Below, one piece after another: positions 12,428-26,122 of a stretch of 64,000 nt of DNA. A model generated the notes under the pieces. The model saw nothing but the letters and a program-made list of their open reading frames with translations, was not told the origin of the DNA and did no database searches. This stretch comes from Escherichia coli (lineage in GTDB: Bacteria; Pseudomonadota; Gammaproteobacteria; Enterobacterales; Enterobacteriaceae), in NCBI RefSeq assembly GCF_001677475.2, contig NZ_CP015229.1; one strand, written 5' to 3'. Position numbers and translations under genes: made by a program. The first letter of the stretch is position 1. Each line of letters starts with the position of its first letter.

Positions 12428-13073
12428 GTCGAAAATGATTGTGCGCACCAAATTTATTGATCGCGCCTGTCACTGGACCGTGGTGATTTGCTTCTTCCTG
12501 GTGGCGCTGTCCGGGATTTCGTTCTTCTTCCCGACGCTGCAATGGCTGACGCAAACCTTCGGTACGCCGCAGATGGGACGCATTTTGCACCCGTTCTTCG
12601 GCATTGCGATTTTCGTCGCGCTGATGTTTATGTTTGTGCGTTTTGTGCATCACAACATCCCGGATAAGAAAGATATTCCGTGGCTGTTGAACATTGTCGA
12701 AGTATTAAAAGGCAATGAGCACAAAGTGGCGGATGTTGGTAAGTACAACGCCGGGCAAAAGATGATGTTCTGGTCGATCATGAGCATGATTTTCGTGCTG
12801 CTGGTGACCGGGGTGATTATCTGGCGTCCGTACTTTGCGCAGTACTTCCCGATGCAGGTTGTTCGCTACAGCCTGCTGATCCACGCGGCTGCCGGTATCA
12901 TCCTGATCCACGCCATCCTGATCCATATGTATATGGCATTTTGGGTGAAAGGATCGATTAAAGGGATGATCGAAGGGAAGGTGAGCCGTCGCTGGGCGAA
13001 GAAACACCATCCGCGCTGGTATCGTGAAATCGAGAAGGCAGAAGCGAAAAAAGAGAGTGAAGAAGGGATATAA
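12420..13073 (+). CDS. fdnI: formate dehydrogenase-N gamma subunit (cytochrome b556)
   Basis: ORF 12378..13073 trimmed to ATG 12420 ([19 protein letters not shown]...), 217 aa. Start overlaps the fdnH stop by 8 nt. Four-helix membrane profile with conserved His residues. Confidence 0.9.
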
Positions 13074-13093
13074 TCTCTTTTGAACTTTAAGCT

Positions 13094-13124
13094 GAAAATG
13101 GCGCTGTAAAAGGCGTCATTTTCA
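13094..13124 (+). terminator. terminator-like hairpin after fdnI
   Basis: aaaatggcgc / gcgtcatttt arms (one G-U pair) around a tgtaaaag loop, about 20 bp after the fdnI stop, followed by a T-rich run. Confidence 0.45.
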
Positions 13125-13127
13125 TAT

Positions 13128-13250
13128 TGTAGACAACGTAGGCTTTGTTCATGCCGGATGCGGCGTGAACGCCTTATCCGGCCTACAAACCCTTCAAATC
13201 CAATAGATTGCAGTGAACTTGTAGACCTGATAAGCGTAGCGCATCAGGCA
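13128..13250. repeat. REP/BIME-type palindromic repeat cluster
   Basis: gccggatgcggcgtgaacgccttatccggcctaca (13153-13187) and tgtagacctgataagcgtagcgcatcaggca (13220-13250) are canonical E. coli REP palindromic units in opposite orientation, lying between convergent fdnI and yddM. Confidence 0.75.
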
Positions 13251-13301
13251 ATGTTGCGTTTGTCATCAGTTTCAAATGGCTCTTTATAAGGTGCCATTTT
13301 T

Positions 13302-13586
13302 TTATTGCGTAACCTGACGGCGTAATCGCGACACATCCACCGTTTTTTCAGCCTCTGCCAGACTCCAGGCGTTTTGCAGATTCAGCCACATTTGCGGCGA
13401 ACTGCCGATCACCACGGAAAGTTTAATTGCCATTTCTGGCGTCAAAGCTGCTTTTCCGGTCAGCAATCGGCTTGCCGTTGAGGGAGCAATTTCCATTGCT
13501 CTGGCAAACTCGCGCAGGCTGACATTAAGTTCGTCCAGTGATTCCTGAATAATGCCCCCCGGACGGGGATGATTGGCCATTTTCAT
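13302..13586 (-). CDS. yddM: XRE/HigA-like helix-turn-helix DNA-binding protein (antitoxin-like)
   Basis: ORF 13302..13664 trimmed to ATG 13586 ([57 protein letters not shown]...), 94 aa; HTH_XRE pattern. Confidence 0.8.
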
Positions 13587-13730
13587 CAGTGTCTTTACTC
13601 TCAGTAGTGTTCCTTCACTGGGAACACCATCATTGTTGTTCCTTCTTGCGCAACAATAATCCATTTAGCCATTTCATGTTGGAGAGAGTGCGATGCTGCG
13701 ACCCGATCATGGCAGTCGCAGCAAAGCCTC

Positions 13731-14741
13731 TTAGCGGCGGAAATCAATCACCATACGGCCACGGATTTTGCCTTCTTCCATCTCGGTAAAGATGGTGTTG
13801 ATGTCCGCTAACGGACGCAGGGCGACTTTCGGCACCACTTTACCTTCGGCGGCAAACTGGAAGGCTTCAGTTAAATCCTGGCGCGTGCCGACCAGCGAAC
13901 CGACCACTTCAATACCATCCAGCACAAGGCGTGGGATATCCAGGCTCATAGACTCCGGCGGCAGACCGACTGCCACAACACGCCCGCCTGCACGGACAGC
14001 ATCAACTGCCGAGTTAAACGCAGCTTTAGCTACCGCTGTCACCACCGCAGCGTGAGCGCCACCGGTTTTTTCCTGCACAATTTTGGCGGCGTCTTCAGTG
14101 CGTGAGTTAATCGCTAAATCAGCGCCCATTTCGGTTGCCAGTTTTAACTGCTCATCGTTGACATCAATGGCGATCACTTTGGCGTTAAAGACATTCTTCG
14201 CGTATTGCAGGGCGAGGTTACCCAGACCGCCAAGACCGTAGATAGCAATCCACTGCCCTGGACGAATTTTTGACAGCTTAACGGCTTTGTAGGTGGTGAC
14301 CCCCGCACAGGTAATGCTGCTGGCCGCCGCCGAGTCCAGACCATCTGGCACTTTTACCGCGTAATCGGCGACCACGATGCACTCTTCCGCCATCCCGCCA
14401 TCAACGCTGTATCCGGCATTTTTAACTGAACGGCAGAGCGTTTCGTTACCACTGTTACAGTATTCGCAATGACCGCATCCTTCGTAAAACCACGCCACGC
14501 TGGCACGATCGCCTGGTTTTAATGAGGTGACACCTGGGCCAACTTCTGCCACCACACCGATGCCTTCATGGCCCAGAATTACGCCGGTTTTGTCACCAAA
14601 ATCGCCATTCTTAACATGAAGATCGGTATGACATACACCACAACACTCCATTTTCAGCAGGGCTTCGCCATGTTTCAGTGAGCGCAGTGTTTTATCCGTA
14701 ACGTCAACATGATGATCCTTCGTAACAACTGCAGCCTTCAT
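13731..14741 (-). CDS. adhP: zinc-dependent alcohol dehydrogenase, propanol-preferring
   Basis: ORF trimmed to ATG 14741 ([14 protein letters not shown]...), 336 aa. AGGAGG RBS immediately upstream. Zn-ADH motifs GHEGIGVV and CGHCEYC. Confidence 0.93.
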
Positions 14742-14825
14742 AGTTCCTCCTTTTCGGATGATGTTCTGCATAGCAGGTGAGGCAAATGAGATTTATTCGC
14801 CACTACCCAGTATGGATGAGATCTG

Positions 14826-14868
14826 AAAAAGGAAGAGGAAAATTGCCCGGTAGCCTTCACTACCGGGC
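14826..14868 (-). terminator. rho-independent terminator after maeA
   Basis: gcccggtag (14845-14853) / ctaccgggc (14860-14868) stem, followed on the minus strand by a U-rich tract (plus-strand aaaaaggaagaggaaaatt). Confidence 0.55.
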
Positions 14869-14874
14869 GCAGGC

Positions 14875-16572
14875 TTAGATGGAGGTACGGCGGTAGTCGC
14901 GGTATTCGGCTTGCCAGAAATTATCGTCAATGGCTTGTTGCAAAGCTTCGGCAGACGTTTTCACCGCCACGCCTTGCTGCTGCGCCATTTTGCCAACCGC
15001 AAACGCAATTGCGCGGGAGACTTTCTGAATATCTTTTAGTTCCGGTAGTACCAGACCTTCGCCGTTCAGGACCAGCGGCGAATACTGGGCAAGCGTTTCA
15101 CTTGCCGACATCAGCATCTCATCGGTGATACGTGACGCGCCGGAAGCAATAACACCCAGCCCAATGCCCGGGAAAATAAAGGCGTTGTTACACTGGGCGA
15201 TAGGGTAGATTTTATCTTTCCATACCACTGGATTAAACGGACTGCCAGTGGCGACCAGCGCGTTACCTTCAGTCCAGGCGATAATGTCCTGAGGTGTGGC
15301 TTCCACGCGTGAAGTCGGGTTAGACAGCGGCATCACGATCGGACGCGGACAGTGTTTGTGCATCTCACGGATGATCTCTTCCGTAAACAGCCCGGTCTGT
15401 CCTGAGACGCCAATCAGAATATCTGGTTTTACATTGCGCACCACGTCCAGCAGTGACAGCACATCGCTGTCGGTATCCCAGTCACTGAGATTTTCGCGTT
15501 TCTGCACCAGTTTGGTCTGGAAAGGCAGCAGGTTCGGCATCTTGTCGGTCAGCAGGCCAAAGCGATCGACCATAAAGACTTTCTGCCGCGCCGTTTCCTC
15601 GCTTAATCCTTCACGCTGAGTCTGGGCAATGATCATTTCGGCAATGCCGCATCCCGCTGAACCTGCGCCAAGGAAGACGATTTTTTTCTCGCTTAACTGA
15701 CCACCTGCCGCGCGGCTGGCTGCGATCAGTGTGCCGACCGTTACCGCCGCGGTGCCCTGAATGTCATCGTTAAAAGAACAAATTTCATTGCGATAGCGGT
15801 TAAGTAACGGCATCGCATTTTTTTGTGCGAAGTCTTCAAACTGCAACAGCACGTCCGGCCAGCGTTGTTTCACAGCCTGGATAAATTCATCAACGAATTC
15901 ATAGTATTCGTCGTCAGTGATACGCGGATTACGCCAGCCCATATACAGCGGATCGTTAAGCAGCTGTTGGTTGTTCGTCCCGACATCCAGCACCACCGGA
16001 AGGGTATACGCCGGGCTGATGCCGCCACAGGCGGTATAGAGTGACAGTTTACCGATCGGAATGCCCATCCCGCCGATGCCCTGGTCACCAAGCCCCAGAA
16101 TACGTTCACCGTCAGTCACCACAATCACTTTAATATTATGGTTCGGCACGTTTTGCAGAATATCGTCCATATTGTGGCGGTTCTGGTAAGAGATAAACAC
16201 GCCGCGTGAACGGCGGTAGATCTCAGAAAAACGCTCACAGGCTGCGCCGACGGTTGGGGTATAAATAACAGGCATCATCTCATCAAGATGATTGTTTACC
16301 AGACGGTAGAAGAGGGTTTCGTTAGTGTCCTGGATGTTACGCAGGTAGATGTGTTTGTCGATTTCGGTTTTGAATCCCTGATACTGGATCCATGCTCGTT
16401 CCGCTTGTTCTTCGATGGTTTCGACCACTTCCGGCAGTAACCCCAGCAGGTTGAAGTTACGGCGTTCTTCCATGCTGAAGGCACTGCCTTTATTCAACAA
16501 CGGAAATTCCAGCAGTACAGGGCCAGCGTAAGGGATATAAAGCGAACGCTGTTTTTTTGTTTTTGGTTCCAT
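14875..16572 (-). CDS. maeA: NAD-dependent malic enzyme
   Basis: ORF 14875..16608 trimmed to the [23 protein letters not shown]... start at 16572 (565 aa). Upstream in-frame ATGs at 16608 and 16599 are alternative starts. Confidence 0.9.
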
Positions 16573-16660
16573 GTCACTCACTCTTTTTTGAATATCCATC
16601 CCTGGCACGCTTTTATCGTCTTTGCTTTACCGCCAGGGCGTCGGCCCCAAGTATAAAGCA

Positions 16661-16698
16661 GATAAAAACAAAAACACCATTGCGCAGGCAATGGTGTT
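16661..16698 (-). terminator. rho-independent terminator after sra
   Basis: 10-bp stem aacaccattg / caatggtgtt with loop cgcagg, followed on the minus strand by UUUUGUUUUUAUC. Confidence 0.6.
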
Positions 16699-16728
16699 TA
16701 ATCGTCATTGAGGACTGATGGTTATGAA

Positions 16729-16866
16729 TTACTTTTCAGCGGGGCGTTTTCTGCCGGTTGGGTTATTTACCACGCTGGATTTGTCACCTTCGGTAACTAT
16801 TTTGCGCTGGTTAGAAATTTTATGGTCCAGTCCAAGAATATGACGTGCCTGACGGTTCGATTTCAT
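16729..16866 (-). CDS. sra: stationary-phase-induced ribosome-associated protein (45 aa)
   Basis: Below the ORF-track length cutoff; found by manual translation: [45 protein letters not shown], with GAGGAG RBS upstream. Confidence 0.88.
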
Positions 16867-16967
16867 TTTAACTCCTCAATCCTGTTGCTAGTTTTAAGGA
16901 CAACATCGCCGTAGCGAAGAAACACGTGCTAAACCCCTAAATTAGGTTGCCGATCAAGCATAGCACC

Positions 16968-17183
16968 TTAAAGCGTAGGGTGCTGGCCACTGACCACATA
17001 ATTGATCGTTTGCTGGTAGATATCACTGAGGATGTCGTTATCAGAAGCTTCCACCCATTTGGTCAGCTCCATGAGAATGTCATCTTCAGTGACAACACCG
17101 TGCTCTGCCCGAAGGCCTTGCTCAATGGCATTAACCAGAGCGGGTTCTGCTGTTGAATTTTCTGCCTGATAATAAGTAAACAT
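16968..17183 (-). CDS. bdm: biofilm-dependent modulation protein (71 aa)
   Basis: ORF 16968..17246 trimmed to ATG 17183 (MFTYYQAENSTAEPALVNAIEQG...). Confidence 0.88.
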   Translation of the reverse strand: MFTYYQAENSTAEPALVNAIEQGLRAEHGVVTEDDILMELTKWVEASDNDILSDIYQQTINYVVSGQHPTL

Positions 17184-17277
17184 AGTGATTCTCCGTGTCT
17201 GTGTATTTATGGTGTCTGCTACGGATCGCAGATTTATAAAGCACATTCAGCATGGCAAATATTTGCCGCTTCGTTGT

Positions 17278-17291
17278 TAAGATTAGTCCTG
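17278..17291. promoter_or_regulatory. RcsB-box-like motif (TAAGATTAGTCCTG) in the bdm/osmC divergent region
   Basis: 11 of 14 positions match the RcsB box consensus TAAGAATAATCCTA as I recall it; osmC and bdm are known Rcs targets. Confidence 0.35.
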
Positions 17292-17527
17292 GTTGATGAG
17301 TTTTATATTTTAACACTATGATATTGATAGGGATTGTTATTGGTGTGAATCGATTAATATTGATACAATATCTTTTGAGTCATATATTTCCTGTTATCTA
17401 TTGTGGGAATTTAATTTAAGTACAGAGATAATGTTTTCGCCGGATTTCATTCGGAATATCCTGCTTATCCTCGTGCTGTTTCTCACGTAGTCTATAATTT
17501 CCTTTTTAAGCCCACAGGAGAGCAACA

Positions 17528-17956
17528 ATGACAATCCATAAGAAAGGTCAGGCACACTGGGAAGGCGATATCAAACGCGGGAAGGGAACAGTATCCACCG
17601 AGAGCGGCGTGCTGAACCAACAGCCGTATGGATTTAACACGCGTTTTGAAGGCGAAAAAGGAACCAACCCTGAAGAACTGATTGGCGCAGCGCATGCCGC
17701 ATGTTTCTCAATGGCGCTTTCATTAATGCTGGGGGAAGCGGGATTCACGCCAACATCGATTGATACCACCGCCGATGTGTCGCTGGATAAAGTGGATGCC
17801 GGTTTTGCGATTACGAAAATCGCACTGAAGAGTGAAGTTGCGGTGCCGGGTATTGATGCCTCTACCTTTGACGGCATCATCCAGAAAGCAAAAGCAGGAT
17901 GTCCGGTTTCACAGGTACTGAAAGCGGAAATTACGCTGGTATTAGACGTCAACTAG
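17528..17956 (+). CDS. osmC: osmotically inducible peroxiredoxin OsmC, with its last residues replaced by IS-derived codons
   Basis: MTIHKKGQAHWEGDIKRGKGTV... through ...VLKAEITL, then VLDVN-stop read from the IS end. The expected native C-terminus DYQLKS-stop is found intact at 20355..20375, on the far side of the IS. Confidence 0.85.
   Translation: MTIHKKGQAHWEGDIKRGKGTVSTESGVLNQQPYGFNTRFEGEKGTNPEELIGAAHAACFSMALSLMLGEAGFTPTSIDTTADVSLDKVDAGFAITKIALKSEVAVPGIDASTFDGIIQKAKAGCPVSQVLKAEITLVLDVN
17932..17938. repeat. target-site duplication (TACGCTG), left copy
   Basis: The same 7-mer is found at 20348..20354 directly flanking the other IS end. Confidence 0.55.
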
Positions 17957-18004
17957 TTTTGCCGACTCGCGCCAACTATACTGGCCGCACCCTTCAGGGC
18001 GACA

Positions 18005-18760
18005 TCAAGTCGCGCTTGTTACTGCCTTCGCTGTCTTTTTCCTGTAGCTTTCCCCTTTCAGTTCGAACATATATCCGTGATGGATCAGCCTGTCTGCCGC
18101 AGCCACCGCCATAGTCTCATCCACGAAGATGCTGCCCCACATGCTGAACGGATGGTTACTGGTTATCACCAGGCTCCCACGTTCATAGCGATGCGCTATT
18201 AACTCGAACAGCACACCCGTTTCGGCACTATCGCGTTTGACATAGCCAAGATCATCCACCACTATCACCCGGTAGCGATCCAGTTTCAGTAGCAGCTCAT
18301 TCAGTTTCAACTGAGCTCTGGCTTTACGTAGTTCCTGCAACAGCTCTCCTGCGCTGTAGAACCGGGCCCGGTAGCCCTGACCTACTACGCCATCCACGAT
18401 CGCTGCCGCCAGATGGCTTTTCCCCAACCCGCTGGCTCCGAACAGCAGAACGTTTTCTCCTGCATCAACCCAGTCTGTCGTTTCACAGAGTTGCCGGAAC
18501 TGAGCTCCATTCAGTTCCGGCACCTGACTGAAGTCGTATTCGCTCAGCGTTTTGGCAACTGGCAACCGGGCCTCCTTTTTATAACGACGCAGTTTTTCAC
18601 TCTCGCGCCACAGGAGTTCTTCATTGCATAGCGTCAGAAGATAGCGCGATGGTGTCCAGCCTTCTGCCAGCGCTCGTTTTTCCAGAGCGTGCCATTCAGC
18701 TCCAACTCGTGTCAGGCGTAGTTTACGCAGGCTATGTTCAAGGTGATGGATATTGCTCAC
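18005..18760 (-). CDS. istB: IS21-family helper ATPase IstB
   Basis: 251 aa with Walker A GASGLGKSHLA and Walker B VIVVDDLG; start overlaps the istA stop (ATGA), typical for IS21. Confidence 0.88.
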   Translation of the reverse strand: MSNIHHLEHSLRKLRLTRVGAEWHALEKRALAEGWTPSRYLLTLCNEELLWRESEKLRRYKKEARLPVAKTLSEYDFSQVPELNGAQFRQLCETTDWVDAGENVLLFGASGLGKSHLAAAIVDGVVGQGYRARFYSAGELLQELRKARAQLKLNELLLKLDRYRVIVVDDLGYVKRDSAETGVLFELIAHRYERGSLVITSNHPFSMWGSIFVDETMAVAAADRLIHHGYMFELKGESYRKKTAKAVTSAT

Positions 18761-20256
18761 TGCGAACCTCCCTTGCCACGCAGTAGTTGCTCATAACTGC
18801 TCAGGTTATGCTGTATCACATTGACTACCGGCAACGCCTTTTCTTTTATACCCAGGAAGCGCATCAGCCGGTGCAGATCCACGTTTCCCGGGGTATTCAG
18901 CATCTGCTCCATACCTTTTGCCACGACTGAGATATCGTCGTATCCTGCAGCCAGTTTCAGGGCATGTACCATCAGCCTTCCTGCCATATCGGGCTCCAGA
19001 TGATTACATAAGCGACGCCACAGCCTCCGCCATTCATCGTCCGGCAGGATGTCATTTCTCAGCGTTGCATGGCAGAACGCACCGGGCTTTTTTGCCAGAC
19101 TGTCGATCACATGTCGGAAGTCGATACGACGGGCCCGCGTCTTCCCTTTTTCTGGTCTGACGCGAGGGCAGCTCATGACCTCGCTGCTGCCAACGTAACA
19201 GCTCAGACGATCGTCCCATAACCTGACCCGTAACAGTTGACCTACAAGCCGGGAAGGTACGCTGTAGACGACGTGCTTCACATTGATGGTACTGCTGCGA
19301 CTAACCCTCACAGTCAGCTCATCATAGTCAGCACTGCGACGAAGCGGCAGCGGTTTCAGATGAAGACGTTCTTCCTTGACCAGATCCTGATTGTTACGGT
19401 TGTGCCGCATAACCTGCTGAGTGATGAAGGCCTGATATTCTTCTATGGTGCTGAAGTCGTTACTGCCCCGCAGTATCAGCGCCTGACAGATACGCCTTTT
19501 CAGATGTCCGTGGGCACTTTCAACCGAGCCATTTTCGTGGCCCCGACCGGCATTATTGTGTACGCCCTGCATTCCGTAGTGCTGACAGAGAGTAGCATAA
19601 CGCTCAGTCAGCTCGCGGCGTCCATCTTCGCCCTGTTGTTTCCATGCTGCCCTCAGGCTGTCCGTTTTATGTTCTACCGGCACTCCGCCCAGTTGTCCGA
19701 GGGCTTCCTGCAGGCCTTCAGCCAGAGCAGAGAAGCTCTCACCACCCAGAACAACCCGCATCCAGCTCCAGTGGCTCCATTCCAGACGGAAGTGATACAA
19801 CTTATGCGCCAACAACTTACCGGCGATGGTGACAACTACACCTTTCAGTTCAGTAAAGTCCGACAGGCCTCGCAGGCCGGGCTGATGTTGCTGGCGGAAC
19901 ATGACCTCCTGCTCTGTACCATACTGTAGTTTCCATTCGCGAACCCGCCGTTGCATTGTTCTTCGAAGGCTGTTGGGGTACTGGCCGGGATATTTATCCT
20001 GTAGCATCTCCAGTAGAGTTGTTGGTGTCAGAGCCGGCCTCTCTTTCAACAGAGGAACAAGCATGCTGTCCCACACAGCTTCCAGAGGATCTTTGCGTGT
20101 GCGCCAGTGCCGAACACTGTTTTTTGCCCACTCTCCTTTTTCGATCCGACGACCAGAACGGACTGAGATACCAGCCTTCATGGCCGAGATATGCTGAGTT
20201 ATACCTTTCTTACGCTGAGTCATATAGTAACTGACCTGAGAAGTATTGAGCGTCAC
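18757..20256 (-). CDS. istA: IS21-family transposase IstA
   Basis: 499-aa ORF with N-terminal HTH and a DDE-type integrase core (HTDSLRAAW...GHENGSVESAHGHLKR); an alternative start is the internal Met at MTQRKKG. Confidence 0.85.
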   Translation of the reverse strand: MTLNTSQVSYYMTQRKKGITQHISAMKAGISVRSGRRIEKGEWAKNSVRHWRTRKDPLEAVWDSMLVPLLKERPALTPTTLLEMLQDKYPGQYPNSLRRTMQRRVREWKLQYGTEQEVMFRQQHQPGLRGLSDFTELKGVVVTIAGKLLAHKLYHFRLEWSHWSWMRVVLGGESFSALAEGLQEALGQLGGVPVEHKTDSLRAAWKQQGEDGRRELTERYATLCQHYGMQGVHNNAGRGHENGSVESAHGHLKRRICQALILRGSNDFSTIEEYQAFITQQVMRHNRNNQDLVKEERLHLKPLPLRRSADYDELTVRVSRSSTINVKHVVYSVPSRLVGQLLRVRLWDDRLSCYVGSSEVMSCPRVRPEKGKTRARRIDFRHVIDSLAKKPGAFCHATLRNDILPDDEWRRLWRRLCNHLEPDMAGRLMVHALKLAAGYDDISVVAKGMEQMLNTPGNVDLHRLMRFLGIKEKALPVVNVIQHNLSSYEQLLRGKGGSQ

Positions 20257-20347
20257 GCCATTTCCTGTTGGATCATGTAAATGACACTCAGGTTACAAAA
20301 CCGGCCAGAATAATCGGCGCCAGGCGGACTGAGTTATTGTCGTCTCA

Positions 20348-20354
20348 TACGCTG
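20348..20354. repeat. target-site duplication (TACGCTG), right copy
   Basis: See left copy; followed by the displaced native osmC 3' end gattaccagttgaaatcgtaa (DYQLKS-stop). Confidence 0.55.
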
Positions 20355-20381
20355 GATTACCAGTTGAAATCGTAAAGCGTT

Positions 20382-20403
20382 GCCGGATGACGCGTCATCC
20401 GGC
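20382..20403. terminator. perfect 22-bp palindrome (gccggatgacg/cgtcatccggc), likely bidirectional terminator
   Basis: Exact inverted repeat between the native osmC stop and the convergent dehydrogenase gene stop (20410). Confidence 0.5.
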
Positions 20404-20409
20404 GAACAC

Positions 20410-21180
20410 TTACTGCGCTACCCAACCGCCATCCATATTCCACGCCACCCCACGCACTTGTGCTGCCGCATCCGAACAGAGAAACAGCGCCAGTTCACCC
20501 AGTTGTTGCGGAGTCACAAATTCACGAGAAGGCTGTTTTTCTGCCAGTAAGGCGTCACGCGCGCTTTCCGCATCTTCGCCTTGCGCAATGCGCTTATCAA
20601 TCTGCTGTTGTACCAGCGGCGTCAGCACCCAGCCAGGGCAGAGCGCGTTGCAGGTAATACCCGTCTGCGCAGTTTCCAGAGCAATGGTCTTTGTGAGTCC
20701 CACCACGCCATGTTTTGCCGCAACATAAGCTGATTTGTCTTTCGACGCTACCAGCCCATGCACAGAGGCAATGTTAATGATCCGACCCCAGTTACGAGTG
20801 CGCATTTCTGGCAGTGCCAGACGCGTGGTGTGAAAGACAGAAGAGAGATTGATGGCGATAATGGCGTTCCATTTTTCTACAGGGAAAGATTCAACCGGGG
20901 AGACATACTGGATCCCGGCGTTATTCACCAGAATGTCCACACCGCCAAATTCCCGCCGTGCGTAGGCCATCATGTTGATAATTTGCGATTCATCGCTGAG
21001 GTCTGCCTCATGATAGCCAGGCGTTTTACCCATACGAGAAACCGCATTGATTGCCGCGTCAACATCACCGAAGCCGTTGAGGATCACTTGCGCGCCAGCG
21101 TTTGCCAGTGTCTGAGCAATACCGAGTCCGATACCGCTGGTGGACCCCGTCACCAGCGCAGTTTTACCTTGTAAATTCAT
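20410..21180 (-). CDS. short-chain dehydrogenase/reductase, 3-hydroxybutyrate dehydrogenase-like
   Basis: 256 aa; TGSTSGIGLGIA cofactor motif, NNAG, and the SxnYxxxK catalytic pattern (SAYVAAKHG). Overall resemblance to BdhA-type D-3-hydroxybutyrate dehydrogenases. Confidence 0.8.
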   Translation of the reverse strand: MNLQGKTALVTGSTSGIGLGIAQTLANAGAQVILNGFGDVDAAINAVSRMGKTPGYHEADLSDESQIINMMAYARREFGGVDILVNNAGIQYVSPVESFPVEKWNAIIAINLSSVFHTTRLALPEMRTRNWGRIINIASVHGLVASKDKSAYVAAKHGVVGLTKTIALETAQTGITCNALCPGWVLTPLVQQQIDKRIAQGEDAESARDALLAEKQPSREFVTPQQLGELALFLCSDAAAQVRGVAWNMDGGWVAQ

Positions 21181-21191
21181 GATGATTTTCC

Positions 21192-22583
21192 TTAGACAAT
21201 GCCGGTGGTGTAGTACACGCCGATGATAAACAGCACGGCCAGACTTTTAATGATCGTAATTGCGAAGATGCCGCCGTAAGCCTGACGGTGACTCAGCCCA
21301 GTAATTGCCAGCAGGGTGATCACAGCGCCGTTATGGGGCAATGTATCCATGCCGCCACTGGCCATAGATGCCACGCGGTGAAAAACTTCCAGTGGAATAT
21401 TGGCAGCGTGCGCAGCGGCAATAAAAGTGTCGGACATAGCCGCAAGAGCAATACTCATCCCGCCGGACGCTGAACCGGTAATTCCGGCAAGTGTGGTGAT
21501 GCTGATGGCTTCGTTGAGTAATGGATCAGGAATGGCGGCCAGCGCCTTTGAGAGCACCAGAAAACCGGGTAGGGCGGCGATAACCGCACCGAAGCCATAT
21601 TCTGAGGCGGTGTTCATCGCAGCCAGAATTGCGCCGCCTACCGCTGTACGGCTTCCTTCTGCCAGTCTTCCATGAATATTGCGATATCCAAAAATCACTA
21701 CCAGCAAAATTCCGGCAATGAGCGCAGCTTCGACGGCCCAGATTGCGGTGATTTTGGCGACATCTGTGGTAATCGGGGCGGTAAGTCCCGGCAACTCCAG
21801 TTGGTGGCTCGCACCGTACCAAACAGGGATCCACCAGGTAAACAACAAGTTCAACAGCCCCACCAGAATCAATGGTGAAATCGCAATGAGTGGGTTCGGT
21901 AAATTGATGTTATCTGGTGTTTCAGGTTCATTAAGTAACTCTGTGCCGTAACCTTCATTTTTTGCCTGCGCTTTACGACGCTGCCGCTCCAGATAGATAA
22001 GCCCGACGGCAATGATAAACAGTGAACCAATAAGCCCCAGCCACGGCGCGGCCCAGGCGTTGGTGCCAAAGAAACTGGTAGGAATAATGTTCTGAATTTG
22101 TGGCGTGCCGGGCAGAGCGTCCATAGTAAAAGAGAATGCTCCCAGGGCCACCGTTGCCGGTATAAGTCGTTTTGGGATGTTACTCTGGCGGAACAGTTCA
22201 GCCGCGAACGGATAAACGGCAAATGCCACCACAAACAGCGACACTCCGCCATAGGTGAGTAATGCACATACCAGCACAATCACCGGAATCGCATGCCGCC
22301 GGCCGAGAATGTTGATTGCAGCAGCGACAATCGAACGAGAAAATCCTGAAAGTTCAATCAGTTTTCCGAACACGGCCCCGAGCAGAAACACCGGGAAGTA
22401 CAATTTCACGAAGCCGACCATTTTTTCCATGAACAGGCCGGTAAATGCTGGGCCAACGGCCCCCGGATCGGTGACAAGAACAGCGCCTAATGCTGCGATG
22501 GGGGCAAAAAGGATAACGCTGTATCCGCGATAGGCTGCCAGCATTAGCAGCCCAAGCGCGGCAAGGGCGATTAATACACTCAT
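21192..22583 (-). CDS. GntP-family hydroxy-acid/H+ permease
   Basis: 463 aa, highly hydrophobic with GntP-like organisation; gene order resembles Bacillus yxjC-scoAB-bdh. Confidence 0.8.
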   Translation of the reverse strand: MSVLIALAALGLLMLAAYRGYSVILFAPIAALGAVLVTDPGAVGPAFTGLFMEKMVGFVKLYFPVFLLGAVFGKLIELSGFSRSIVAAAINILGRRHAIPVIVLVCALLTYGGVSLFVVAFAVYPFAAELFRQSNIPKRLIPATVALGAFSFTMDALPGTPQIQNIIPTSFFGTNAWAAPWLGLIGSLFIIAVGLIYLERQRRKAQAKNEGYGTELLNEPETPDNINLPNPLIAISPLILVGLLNLLFTWWIPVWYGASHQLELPGLTAPITTDVAKITAIWAVEAALIAGILLVVIFGYRNIHGRLAEGSRTAVGGAILAAMNTASEYGFGAVIAALPGFLVLSKALAAIPDPLLNEAISITTLAGITGSASGGMSIALAAMSDTFIAAAHAANIPLEVFHRVASMASGGMDTLPHNGAVITLLAITGLSHRQAYGGIFAITIIKSLAVLFIIGVYYTTGIV

Positions 22584-22628
22584 CGGGACTCCTCAATATC
22601 GTTGTTATAGTGGGTACAGCGAGAGAAG

Positions 22629-23552
22629 TTATGGTTTAAGGGCGAAGCGAAGTTGATGTTCCCGACGCTGCTGGATGTACTGCTTCCGCGATTCATCCCA
22701 GCAGTAAAATCCCTGACCGCTACGTACGCCGATGTCTCCACGTTCCACTTTTTCGGCAACTAATGACATCATGTCGCTGCCAGTCGCTAGTTCAGGGAGC
22801 AGATGGCGACAAATATCCTGCACCGTCGAAAGTCCGGTCATGTCGGCGGCCTCCAGCGGGCCGACCATGGCATAACGTCGCCCAAGCGAGGCGCGCATCA
22901 CCTGATCCACCACTTCTGCACTGGCGATGCCGCTTTTTACGATATGCAGGGCTTCACGCAACAGTGCAAATTGCAGACGGTTGCCGACAAATCCTGGCGC
23001 AGCGCGATCCAGCAACACTGCTTCCAGTTGCAGTGACACAAGCAAGTGTTGCAGCCAGTGCAAATGCTTTGGCTCGGTAACGCTGCCGGGGATAATCTCC
23101 ACAAGTGGAATGAAGTGCGGCGGATGCCAGAAATGGGCGATCAGCAGTCGTTGCGGGTAGCGCATCTTCGCGGCCAGATCATCGGGCGGCAGACCGCTGG
23201 TATTGCTGGCGACAATGGCCTCAGGAGAAATAAGCGTTTCAAGCTCGGTATATAATGCGTGTTTTAGTTCAAGTCGCTCCGGGATCGCCTCAATCAGTAG
23301 TTGCGAGTCGGCGATGTCTGCAAGAGAAGTCGTGCCGTGCAGACGTTTAAGCACATTCTCTTTTTCCGGGGCAGTAAACTGTTCGCAGCTAATCAGCTCA
23401 TCAAGAATTCCGCCTGCAACTACGTGGATTTCTGCAATCCGGCTCTGCTCGGTATCGTACAGCCAGATATCATGACCAAAGCGGGCGAAATGAGTGGCAA
23501 TCCCCACGCCCATCAATCCGGCGCCCAGTACCGCAAATTGTTCAGTTTGCAT
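22629..23552 (-). CDS. 3-hydroxyacyl-CoA dehydrogenase-family NAD-dependent dehydrogenase (subfamily with the HPP..IPLVE motif)
   Basis: 307 aa; N-terminal Rossmann fold ([12 protein letters not shown]) and [14 protein letters not shown]. That motif is the variant I associate with family members acting on free 3-hydroxy acids (L-carnitine or L-gulonate 3-dehydrogenase type) rather than classic Hbd. Confidence 0.75.
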
Positions 23553-24746
23553 GGTGTTCTCCTGTGGTTCTTTCCAGTGTCAGCGCCACGCCCTGACCGC
23601 CACCGACGCACAGCGTCGCCAGCCCTTTTTGCGCATTACGTCGCGCCATTTCATAAATGAGAGTGACCAGAATGCGGCAACCGGAAGCGCCAATAGGATG
23701 CCCAAGTGCGATTGCGCCGCCGTTAACATTCACTTTGTCGCAATCCCAGTTCAGTTCGTCGCCAACGGCCAGCGCCTGCGCTGCGAAAGCCTCGTTGGCT
23801 TCAATAAGATCAATATCTTCCAGCGTCCATCCGCAACGCTTAAGACATTCGCGGGAGCGGCGACCGGACCAATGCCCATAAAGGCAGGATCGACGCCAGA
23901 AACGGCATAACCAGCCACCCGAGCCAGCACAGGGAGACCAAGTTCGGCAGCTTTGCTGGCGCGCATTAACATGACTGCGGCGGCACCATCATTGATGGAA
24001 GAAGCATTTCCTGCGGTGACGCTTCCCGCCCCCGGAAGAAAGGCCGGTTTCAGTTGTGCTAGTTTTTCCAGTTGCGTCCCGGAACGTGGTTGTTCGTCGG
24101 TATTTACCCTGCGTGGTGGTTTTTTACCTTGTGGTACGCTGACCGGAGTAATTTCGTCTGCAAAGCGCCCGGCTTCCATTGCGGCAGCGGCTTTTTGCTG
24201 AGAACGTAGCGCGAATGTGTCCTGTCGCTCGCGACTGATGGCATATTTTTGCGCCAGGTTTTCTGCAGTAATGCCCATGTGGTAATCATTGAAAGCGTCC
24301 CATAGTCCGTCATGCACCACGCTGTCTTTCATGCTGGTATGCCCGAGGCGTAAACCTGCCCGTGCGCCATCAATAAAATAGGGCGCGTTACTCATGCTTT
24401 CCTGGCCACCTGCGATAATTATCTGTGCATCACCGCAACGGATCGCCTGTACGGCCTGGTGTACTGCTTTCAGACCGGAACCACATACCAGGTTGATGGT
24501 AACGGCGGGTGTATCGTGGCTTAACCCGGCTTTGAGCGCCGATTGCCGTGCCGGATTTTGTCCGCTTCCGGCAGTCAGGACCTGACCAAAAATCACTTCG
24601 TCGATCTGTTCTGCTGCAAGTGCTGTTTTCTCCAGCAATGAACGGATGGTGGCAGCGCCGAGATCAACCGCAGAAAGTGGGGCGAGAGCGCCATGAAAAC
24701 AGCCAATCGGTGTGCGCGTAGCGGCAACAATAACAACGTCCTGCAT
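23542..24746 (-). pseudogene. acetyl-CoA acetyltransferase (thiolase) gene interrupted by a 1-nt frameshift
   Basis: The N-terminal ORF (23751..24746; MQDVVIVAATRTPIG...GIGPV) and the C-terminal ORF (23542..23733; ...[25 protein letters not shown]...) are both thiolase but in different frames. Manual translation shows the thiolase frame resumes ([29 protein letters not shown]...) just after GIGPV, so the shift lies near plus-strand 23850-23862. Confidence 0.75.
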
Positions 24747-24755
24747 GGTGATTCC

Positions 24756-25412
24756 TCAGTTGAATTGCATTTCCGGGACATGTTCCGGCACAAACAACTT
24801 ACCGGCGGTTTTGGCGATGATTTCCGCAACGCTGATTCCCGGCGCGCGCTCGCGCAGAATGAAAGCTCCGTCAGCAATTTCCAGCAGAGCAAGGTCGGTT
24901 AAGACGCGTTTGATGCATCCGGCGCCGGTCAACGGAAGGGTACAGTCAGGAAGCAGTTTGGATTCGCCGGATTTGGAGGCGTGGGTCATTACCACAATAA
25001 TATTCTCGGCACCGGCAACCAGATCCATGGCACCGCCCATGCCTTTAACCATCTTGCCGGGGATCATCCATGAGGCAATGTTGCCATTCACATCCACTTC
25101 AAATACGCCAAGTACAGTCAGATCCACATGACCGCCACGGATCATGGCGAATGATTGCGCCGAATCGAAAATTGCCGCGCCTTTCCGCGCGGTAACGGTT
25201 TGTTTACCGGCATTAATCATGTCGGCGTCCAGTTCGTCTTCCGTAGGAAATGCGCCCATTCCCAGCAAACCGTTTTCTGACTGCAACATCACATCCATCC
25301 CGTCAGGAATGTAGTTTGCCACCAGGGTCGGGATACCAATGCCGAGATTGACGTAATAGCCATCGCGCAATTCGCGGGCGACTCGCATCGCCATTTGTTC
25401 ACGGGTTAACAT
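24756..25412 (-). CDS. 3-oxoacid CoA-transferase subunit B (ScoB/AtoA/DhcB-like)
   Basis: 218 aa; conserved ...SENGLLGMGAFP... region with the catalytic Glu of family I CoA-transferase beta subunits. Confidence 0.85.
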   Translation of the reverse strand: MLTREQMAMRVARELRDGYYVNLGIGIPTLVANYIPDGMDVMLQSENGLLGMGAFPTEDELDADMINAGKQTVTARKGAAIFDSAQSFAMIRGGHVDLTVLGVFEVDVNGNIASWMIPGKMVKGMGGAMDLVAGAENIIVVMTHASKSGESKLLPDCTLPLTGAGCIKRVLTDLALLEIADGAFILRERAPGISVAEIIAKTAGKLFVPEHVPEMQFN

Positions 25413-25414
25413 GG

Positions 25415-26122
25415 TCAGGCTCCTTTGCGGCTAAGGGTGCGTTGTTCAATGCGTTTTTCAAATTGCCCCTGAATGACGCGATTAACAAAAATCCCCGGGG
25501 TATGGATAGCGGCAGGATCAAGTTCACCAGGTGGCACTATTTCTTCCACTTCCACCACGGTGATTTTTCCGGCAGCCGCCATCAGTGGGTTGAAGTTTTG
25601 CGCGGTATGACGATAAATCACGTTGCCGTACCAGTCGGCTTTCCAGCCTTTGACCAGGGCAAAATCACCGGTGATAGCCTGTTCCATGATGTACGGGCGA
25701 CCGTTGAATTCGCGGACTTCTTTCCCTTCGGCAACGGGAGTACCGTAACCGGTGGCAGTAAAGAACGCCGGGATACCCGCGCCGCCTGCGCGCAGTTGTT
25801 CTGCCAGGGTTCCTTGTGGTGTGAGAATCGCCTCCAGTTCGCCGTTAAGCACCTGTTTTTCAAACAAAGCATTCTCGCCAACATAAGAAGCGACGACTTT
25901 ACGGATCTGTCGGCTTTCCAGTAGTACATCCAGTCCAAAACCATCTACGCCACAGTTATTGGAAACCACCGTTAATCCGGTTACTCCACGGTGGCGAACT
26001 TCAGCAATCAGATTCTCCGGGATGCCGCACAGGCCAAAACCTCCTGCCAGAATCGTCATCTCATTGGTAAGTCCTTCAAGCGCCTCGTGATACGTAGCGA
26101 CCCGTTTATCCAACCCAGCCAT
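25415..26122 (-). CDS. 3-oxoacid CoA-transferase subunit A (ScoA/AtoD/DhcA-like)
   Basis: 235 aa; MAGLDKRV... and the [10 protein letters not shown] motif typical of alpha subunits; 2-bp spacing to subunit B. Confidence 0.85.

Follow-up and report, generated by a model that had tools for sequence, protein, structure and literature searches.

ISEc10 lies within codon 138 of osmC in a single Escherichia coli strain

An insertion sequence of the IS21 family, ISEc10, sits within codon 138 of osmC in Escherichia coli contig NZ_CP015229.1 (assembly GCF_001677475.2), where we analyzed a stretch of 64,000 nucleotides, hereafter the window. It is an ordinary insertion specific to a single strain and of low interest, and ISEc10 itself is a frequent and previously catalogued mobile element of E. 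coli. One transposition of this known element into osmC, taken together with the functional inferences drawn from it, is the best explanation of the locus, with a probability that we put at about 0.92, and nothing contradicts the insertion itself. The features of the interrupted gene and of the element are as follows.

17528..17956, plus strand: chimeric osmC coding sequence, 142 aa (TIGR03562 match; identity to PDB 1NYE; identical to ANO89077.1/WP_065226897.1)
17934..17939, no strand: left target-site duplication, CGCTGG (boundaries from other ISEc10 copies; single in the GF43 empty site)
17940..20349, minus strand: ISEc10, 2,410 bp, TATTAGACG...CGTCTCATA (other copies and annotation matches)
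17940..17987, no strand: istB-proximal terminal inverted repeat, the source of the osmC codons (V)LDVN-stop
18005..18760, minus strand: istB, AAA+ helper ATPase, 251 aa, full length (NF038214, PF01695, PDB 8q3w)
18757..20256, minus strand: istA, IS21-type transposase, 499 aa, full length (NF033546, MuA-like beta-barrel)
20302..20349, no strand: istA-proximal terminal inverted repeat, ending ...CTCATA
20350..20355, no strand: right target-site duplication, CGCTGG (boundaries from other ISEc10 copies; single in the GF43 empty site)
20355..20375, plus strand: displaced native osmC 3′ end, gattaccagttgaaatcgtaa, read as GAT TAC CAG TTG AAA TCG TAA (DYQLKS-stop)

Comparison with other copies identified the element as ISEc10. 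The nearest copy, on pOkiPb01695_1, differs at 3 nt (99.9% identity) and the copy in CFT073 at 36 nt (98.5% identity), both carrying the RefSeq label ISEc10 family, and ISEc10-annotated elements in 525 genomes cover 2,408 of 2,408 bases at 98.5-99.9%. Length, tips, istA and istB sizes and the 4-nt overlap of the two genes are the same in the annotated elements of CFT073, RM9088 and OkiPb01695, as in those of about 525 further complete genomes. The osmC copy, 3 nt from its nearest relative, differs from the catalogued ones solely in its insertion site. An Rfam scan of positions 12500-21500 returned no matches.

Both transposition genes are full length and lie on the minus strand, antisense to osmC (an orientation that the earlier note did not mention), in the IS21-family layout of consecutive istA and istB on one strand (PMC10122671), with the istA stop and the istB start overlapping by 4 nt. 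Each exceeds its NCBI curated cut-off, in agreement with the earlier note, which had read an intact istA/istB element of this family from the sequence. IstB scores 266.7 bits against NF038214 (cut-off 200) and 1e-61 against PF01695; it carries a Walker A motif, GASGLGKS, and a Walker B motif, VIVVDDLGY, and it matches the IS5376 IstB structures (PDB 8q3w) at 3.7e-45 with the GxxGxGKS and hhhhDD motifs aligned. IstA scores 226.4 bits against the NCBIfam equivalog NF033546 (cut-off 160), spanning profile positions 2-293 of 294, and its residues 311-366 form a MuA-like beta-barrel. Relative to annotated copies, IstA differs at 2-4 residues and IstB at 1. A search intended to place the catalytic D-D-E triad on the solved IstA structures gave no sequence match even at E<=10.

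IS21 and IS5376 (PMC10122671, PMC11208146) share with ISEc10 the two-gene organization, an IstB of the AAA+ ATPase type and terminal repeats made of several parts, and in IstA a MuA-like beta-barrel follows the catalytic core. They differ in the size of IstA, about 400 aa compared with 499 aa in ISEc10, and in their ends, where the signature 3′-CA of IS21/IS5376 is replaced by TA at both ISEc10 tips. Ends of the 3′-CA type are usual for the IS21 family and have been termed a "signature" (PMC10122671). Across 12 ISEc10 copies, the tips end in ...CTCATA-3′ on one strand and in ...GTCTAATA-3′ on the opposite one; CA occurs only subterminally, 2 nt inside the istA-proximal end alone. The TA tips thus appear, from the copies aligned, to be a property of ISEc10 generally, common to all copies and not peculiar to the one in osmC.

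The boundaries of the insertion are fixed independently of the osmC locus because 11 other ISEc10 copies lie in different contexts. All 12 copies, in these varied surroundings, have the tips TATTAG...CTCATA and a length of 2,410 bp (2,409 bp in one copy). The terminal inverted repeats are imperfect, as the earlier note had described them, with 49-nt arms that are 71% complementary and 11 matches among the first 13 bases.

With the boundaries set in this way, the length of the target-site duplication could be determined precisely. An exact repeat of 8 nt, TACGCTGG, flanks the element and extends to 17939 and 20355; it contains the 7-mer TACGCTG (17932-17938 and 20348-20354) that had been proposed as a 7-bp duplication. 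The repeat is indeed present, but the proposed length does not hold: positions 20348-20349 (TA) belong to the element as its conserved tip, which makes the duplication 6 bp, CGCTGG, and the repeat reaches 8 bp because the IS-terminal TA happens to equal the target bases. Duplications of 7 bp or 8 bp are therefore ruled out, given that TA is present at both tips in 12 of 12 copies and only CGCTGG is duplicated. Target duplications in the IS21 family range from 4 to 8 bp. Among the 12 ISEc10 copies, 6 bp is found in seven (the osmC copy included), 5 bp in two, 7 bp in two and no duplication in one. A 6-nt match exactly abutting the fixed boundaries has a chance of about 1/4096, and the direct repeat is not due to chance.

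When ISEc10 and one target copy were removed in silico, the resulting junction matched that of an existing empty-site allele exactly, which bears out the earlier view of a precisely reconstructable insertion that alters the OsmC C-terminus. Precise excision restores ...ACGCTGGATTAC..., and the excised sequence, spanning the junction of osmC and the 3-hydroxybutyrate dehydrogenase gene, is uninterrupted in 228 complete E. coli genomes. Strain GF43 is collinear with both flanks and holds the target in single copy at its empty site, an outcome in favour of the earlier note on its own test of the duplication.

The open reading frame at 17528-17956 follows the native osmC sequence through ...KAEITL and then ends VLDVN-stop, while the native DYQLKS-stop is encoded beyond the right repeat at 20355-20375, both as first read. 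Residues 1-137 are identical to K-12 OsmC (PDB 1NYE). Codon 138 joins the native G at 17939 to TA from the element and encodes valine (D138V), and LDVN together with the TAG stop (17954-17956) lies wholly within the IS end. The six-residue tail DYQLKS is thereby replaced by the five residues VLDVN, leaving a protein one residue shorter. The wild-type DYQLKS ending occurs on >1,000 contigs and VLDVN only once, which settles that VLDVN is not the wild-type terminus.

To what extent the new tail affects the protein can be gauged from family comparison and structure prediction. The chimera scores 202.8 bits against TIGR03562, the OsmC subfamily profile (cut-off 85.8), with the match stopping at residue 137 (profile position 135 of 137), and it keeps the catalytic Cys59 and Cys125, which are near-invariant in a 68-sequence alignment. 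The family C-terminus follows the pattern I135-x-L137-[DE]-A-x-L141, and the native strand reads I-[TS]-L-[DE]-A-x-L-x. The chimera stays hydrophobic at positions 139 and 141 (L139 and V141), and its V138 occupies a position where 53 of 82 relatives have D or E. Five-residue tails are found in 18 of the 82. AlphaFold2, which is insensitive to destabilising substitutions, predicted the same fold for both forms, with a last strand at 134-141 in the chimera and 134-142 in the wild type, a mean pLDDT of 96.4 versus 97.3, and a confidence over the last two or three residues of 84 versus 93. Compared with wild-type OsmC (PDB 1NYE, 1QWI), the chimera has the same predicted fold and is identical over residues 1-137 (to 1NYE), Cys59 and Cys125 included; the change affects the latter half of the last beta-strand. 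These predictions suggest that chimeric OsmC probably still folds with its active site kept; a difference in stability or activity is conceivable but unlikely.

Two further features define the transcriptional surroundings on the far side of the element.

20382..20403, no strand: native hairpin, GCCGGATGACGCGTCATCCGGC, between the convergent osmC and hbd (folding energies)
20410..21180, minus strand: 3-hydroxybutyrate dehydrogenase gene (hbd), last gene of a convergent cluster (context, not part of the element)

The native hairpin folds at -20.8 kcal/mol (z -3.9) on the plus strand and -25 kcal/mol (z -4.7) on the minus strand, and the insertion has moved it 2.4 kb away from the osmC stop codon. 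Transcripts of osmC enter the element, where the initial 100 nt offer just one weak terminator-like stem of 5 bp. Less OsmC is probably produced, since the mRNA would lack its 3′ stem-loop and run into the convergent istAB genes, and lower osmC expression is the more likely consequence of the insertion. A related situation has been described in CFT073, where new ISEc10 insertions 3′ of lpp lowered lpp mRNA 6-10-fold (PMC7482066). The element is the same one, and there, too, it entered a strongly expressed gene at its 3′ side; those insertions were stable. However, the lpp insertions were antibiotic-selected and were reported to lie downstream of the coding region (PMC7482066), whereas the osmC insertion falls within the last codons, alters the protein and is not known to have been selected.

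The neighbouring cluster on the minus strand comprises hbd, gntP, hadh, thiolase and the CoA-transferase B and A genes. Its transcription starts in a promoter region some 5.7 kb distant, beside a divergent LysR gene, proceeds in the direction of osmC and ends at the strong hairpin before the element. The thiolase gene carries a frameshift, and the cluster may already be decaying. An effect of the insertion on this cluster, which the earlier note had thought possible, is unlikely: a polar effect is rejected on gene orientation, the cluster being convergent with osmC and separated from the element by the strong hairpin. In addition, istA is transcribed away from hbd, and scanning for consensus promoters revealed none in the element directed outward at hbd.

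These observations bear on whether the insertion was selected, either because weakening or modifying osmC was adaptive or because an IS-borne promoter altered the expression of neighbours including the hbd cluster. Precedents lend this some plausibility, as laboratory selection has yielded ISEc10 insertions that lower expression of an adjacent gene (PMC7482066) and one in the afa promoter region cut promoter activity (PMC8764528), and the frameshifted thiolase gene would fit a cluster on its way to loss. We nevertheless regard selection as improbable. A catalogue of about 15 billion proteins and a set of 5,426 complete genomes show the allele as a singleton, with neither recurrence nor spread seen, and the convergent arrangement, the distant promoter end, the intervening hairpin, the direction of istA and the promoter scan all speak against an effect on hbd.

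Consistent with an insertion private to one strain, neither junction occurs in any of the 5,426 complete genomes. Chimeric OsmC is represented by one NCBI contig and one Logan (SRA) contig among the catalogued proteins, and, as far as sequence matches can tell, no other catalogued genome carries ISEc10 in osmC. The insertion is probably recent, a view based solely on the perfect duplication, the intact open reading frames and the singleton status. The complete-genome set includes no close lineage relatives (best flank identity 97.7% and 98.9%), so the insertion is not datable against sister strains.

A misplaced multicopy element in the assembly, with the real osmC intact, could in principle produce the same picture. 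ISEc10 is often multicopy, occupying up to 14 places per genome and about 1,100 across the complete genomes, and the short-read Logan contig (run SRR3929499), which is 100% identical to window positions 13528-17967, breaks 28 nt into the element, as it would at a repeat. However, this separate assembly contains the left junction and the chimeric open reading frame base for base, although its reads and the NCBI genome may share one source isolate and so may not be biologically independent. Moreover, misassembly would not yield a perfect 6-bp duplication at two independently set tips, and an artefact is accordingly very improbable. Least credible is a rearrangement, by recombination between two ISEc10 copies or at the end of a composite transposon, that brought together flanks not originally adjacent: copies lacking a duplication do exist (for example, copy L017 in Klebsiella spallanzanii), but the perfect duplication, the absence of a second ISEc10 end from the 64-kb window and the collinearity of the flanks with GF43 and 227 other genomes stand against it, and the contiguous empty site already refutes it.

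The event is best explained as a single ISEc10 transposition. One copy of the element, which encodes the IstA DDE transposase and IstB, the AAA+ target-selecting ATPase, moved into osmC, and repair of staggered cuts flanking CGCTGG left the 6-bp duplication. The element interrupts codon 138 behind its first base, in antisense orientation, and osmC ends in IS codons (VLDVN-stop, not DYQLKS-stop), severed from its native 3′ hairpin. The neighbouring hbd cluster is probably unaffected.

Target choice by IstA/IstB may be sequence-guided in a cryptic manner rather than purely shape-guided, and the osmC site may reveal this, though we consider it unlikely. An alignment of 19 left flanks established no target consensus: no position exceeded 0.5 bit, and A/T was slightly favoured from -10 to -8; loci L021-L024 were left out of this count, having been picked for flank similarity. 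The 26 nt at the istB side agree at 20 of 26 positions with the sequence flanking an ISEc10-like insertion of independent origin that is fixed in ST131 (EC958) upstream of kpsF. The EC958 flank gave rise to the idea of pseudo-end targeting, that is, of sites resembling IS ends, which was rejected, as the best 20-mer matches of 20 target sites to the IS ends fall within the null distribution drawn from random pieces of the window. An unrelated insertion in a prophage glycoside-hydrolase gene of CH436 has the identical hexamer CGCTGG.

The insertion adds one more ISEc10 target, duplicated over 6 bp, to those located exactly. Its importance beyond annotation is small, and it opens no new testable question. 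WP_065226897.1 is listed at NCBI as "peroxiredoxin OsmC" with the IS origin of its last five residues and stop unflagged, a small example of how IS-chimeric open reading frames enter protein databases. For the strain itself, the prediction is that less OsmC would be made, and tolerance of organic hydroperoxides would be somewhat lower in stationary phase or under osmotic stress.

The osmC gene lies in an E. coli chromosomal segment with the gene order fdnGHI-yddM-adhP-maeA-sra-bdm-osmC, and its reading frame from 17528 runs through ...KAEITL into VLDVN-stop, as the earlier note had described. Residues 1-137 of this chimeric OsmC are identical to K-12 OsmC in PDB 1NYE. The displaced native C-terminus that had been proposed is likewise present beyond the inserted element.

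Features of the osmC locus
17528 to stop TAG at 17954-17956: osmC open reading frame, 142 aa
17934-17939 and 20350-20355: target duplication CGCTGG, 6 bp
17940-20349: ISEc10, bounded by the tips of 12 copies
18760-18005, minus: istB, 251 aa, full-length
20256-18757, minus: istA, 499 aa, full-length
20355-20375: displaced native osmC 3′ end, GATTACCAGTTGAAATCGTAA, translating to DYQLKS-stop
20382-20403: native hairpin, strong (-20.8 kcal/mol, z -3.9)
20410-26122, minus: hbd, GntP permease, 3-hydroxyacyl-CoA dehydrogenase, thiolase, CoA-transferase B and A

The 2.4-kb segment matches RefSeq "IS21-like element ISEc10 family" transposase and helper-ATPase elements from end to end (98.5-99.9%), and such matches occur on chromosomes and plasmids of 898 of 5,426 complete E. 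coli genomes, 525 of which carry a near-full-length copy. Both proteins, whose genes overlap by 4 nt, exceed the NCBI IS21 cut-offs (IstA, transposase equivalog, 226 bits versus 160; IstB, helper ATPase, 267 versus 200), bearing out the assignment of an intact IS21-family element. Further matches for IstB are Pfam IstB_IS21 (1e-61) and the solved structures of its IS5376 counterpart (3.7e-45), the latter alignment pairing the Walker A and B motifs. A sequence search of the PDB with IstA gave no match; its sole Pfam match is a MuA-like β-barrel (residues 311-366), a domain that published work on IstA places directly behind the DDE core (PMC10122671). Relative to annotated copies, IstA carries 2-4 amino acid changes and IstB one, and the whole element differs by 3 nt from the plasmid pOkiPb01695_1 copy and by 36 nt from a CFT073 copy. 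Two sequences resemble the istA-proximal terminal repeat (20325-20346), namely GACTGAGATATCGTCGTATC within istA (18925-18944; 85% identical) and CGGACTGAGATA near the istA start (20159-20170); judged by likeness, they may be additional IstA-binding repeats, or the resemblance may be due to chance.

The element boundaries were set by comparing 12 copies with both ends in differing contexts, nine from E. coli (the window included) and three from other genera, the latter from one scan of species-representative genomes. All 12 share the tips TATTAGACG...CGTCTCATA, and copies measure 2,410 bp, or 2,409 bp in a degenerate ST131 copy. Direct repeats abutting the tips are 6 bp in seven copies, 5 bp in two, 7 bp in two and absent in one. 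These tips and repeats place the element at 17940-20349 and make its duplication CGCTGG. The TACGCTG repeat of the earlier note does occur at both positions, but as a substring of the exact 8-nt repeat TACGCTGG (17932-17939 and 20348-20355); the repeat looks 8 nt long because the IS-tip TA (20348-20349) by chance equals the TA preceding CGCTGG in osmC. In every copy examined, the tips lack the IS21 family's usual terminal 3′-CA, and a CA is found 2 nt inside at the istA-proximal end only.

Neither IS-osmC junction was found in the 5,426 complete genomes. Exact look-up among ~15 billion proteins placed wild-type OsmC on more than 1,000 contigs, and the chimera only on one 5,498,453-bp contig in NCBI (ANO89077.1/WP_065226897.1) and in one Logan assembly beyond it (run SRR3929499). 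The source lineage is poorly represented, since the flanks reach at most 97.7% and 98.9% identity to any complete genome. With no close relative in that set, the description of the insertion as recent rests on its perfect duplication, intact ORFs and singleton status. Selection of the osmC::ISEc10 allele is neither supported nor excluded, and there is no hint of recurrence. Misassembly is countered both by the target duplication and by the SRR3929499 contig, which is 100% identical to the window at 13528-17967 and confirms the left junction from reads; its break 28 nt within the IS suggests that the element is multicopy in that genome.

In-silico excision (17639-17939 joined to 20356-20655, 600 nt) yielded a sequence uninterrupted in 228 complete genomes at 99.3-99.7%, annotated there as osmC/3-hydroxybutyrate dehydrogenase, so the site is precisely reconstructable as proposed. 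The earlier note would have yielded to a native VLDVN ending or an unduplicated flank; instead, the rebuilt ORF is the canonical 143-aa OsmC and the empty junction is contiguous (...GAAATTACGCTGGATTACCAGTTGAAATCGTAA...) in strain GF43, which excludes an IS-mediated rearrangement in place of simple insertion. Collinearity between GF43 and the window extends to both sides of the osmC site, where the IS is the sole interruption. Elsewhere, ~145 bp between fdnI and yddM (13129-13274), holding a REP-type palindrome pair (GCCGGATGCGGCGTGAACGCCTTATCCGGCCTAC ... GTAGACCTGATAAGCGTAGCGCATCAGGC), is missing in GF43, an ordinary BIME/REP polymorphism.

No general target consensus emerged from 19 flanks, and targets resembling IS ends were tested and rejected. 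The same CGCTGG hexamer was used by another independent insertion, and the sequences would allow a possible weak preference for CTGG-containing targets. The istB-side flank (17914-17939) matches that of an ISEc10-like copy in ST131 strain EC958 (NZ_HG941718.1; locus L001, 3001-3027) at 20/26 positions, far above the second-best pair (14/26), a likeness that is unexplained; the EC958 copy lies upstream of kpsF and has an internal stop in istB. A full-length ISEc10 in Klebsiella spallanzanii (L017, NZ_CABGGS010000002.1) lacks a target duplication, which suggests IS-mediated deletion or recombination there. Exact ISEc10 termini in Martelella alba scaffolds (L007/L008; an alphaproteobacterium) and an actinobacterial Collinsella MAG contig (L016) probably stem from contamination or mis-binning and do not show a genuine host range.

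The hbd cluster, which lies between osmC and the ddp/dos genes, adjoins osmC in only ~228-229 of 5,426 complete E. coli genomes. It is transcribed toward osmC from a start region adjoining a divergent LysR gene (~26.1-26.3 kb). Because the cluster is convergent, the IS lies past its last gene and hairpin, and istA is oriented away, a polar or promoter effect is unlikely, contrary to the earlier suggestion that its expression could be affected. Within it, the acetyl-CoA C-acetyltransferase (thiolase) gene (23540-24750, minus) has a 1-nt deletion near 23856, outside any homopolymer (CGGGTAGCGG in GF43, CGGGAGCGG in the window); this shifts the frame at ~codon 297 of 401 and probably makes the gene a pseudogene, unless the deletion is a sequencing error.

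The chimeric OsmC keeps catalytic Cys59 and Cys125. The insertion point falls midway along the last β-strand, which the wild-type model places at residues 134-142 and whose pattern among 82 diverse relatives is I135-[TS]-L137-[DE]138-A139-x-L141-x; with V138, L139, D140, V141 and N142, the chimera retains the inward-facing hydrophobic positions and loses acidic 138. Tails of 5 residues occur naturally in 18 of the 82. AlphaFold2, run for both proteins on the same alignment, predicted one fold, with mean pLDDT 96.4 for the chimera and 97.3 for wild type, last strands at 134-141 and 134-142, and pLDDT of 84 and 93 over the last two or three residues. As such models are insensitive to stability loss, this is weak evidence that the chimera would still fold.

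Collectively, the core interpretation of the earlier note is right, with the 6-bp duplication and the convergent cluster as corrections, and the finding is genuine yet ordinary, a strain-specific insertion of a catalogued IS. The native hairpin now lies 2.4 kb from the osmC stop codon, only a weak 5-bp stem occurs just within the IS end, and istAB are transcribed toward osmC. Laboratory work shows ISEc10 to be active: fresh insertions on the 3′ side of lpp in CFT073 lowered lpp expression 6-10-fold (PMC7482066). We infer that the predicted effect on osmC expression is clearer than that on the protein.
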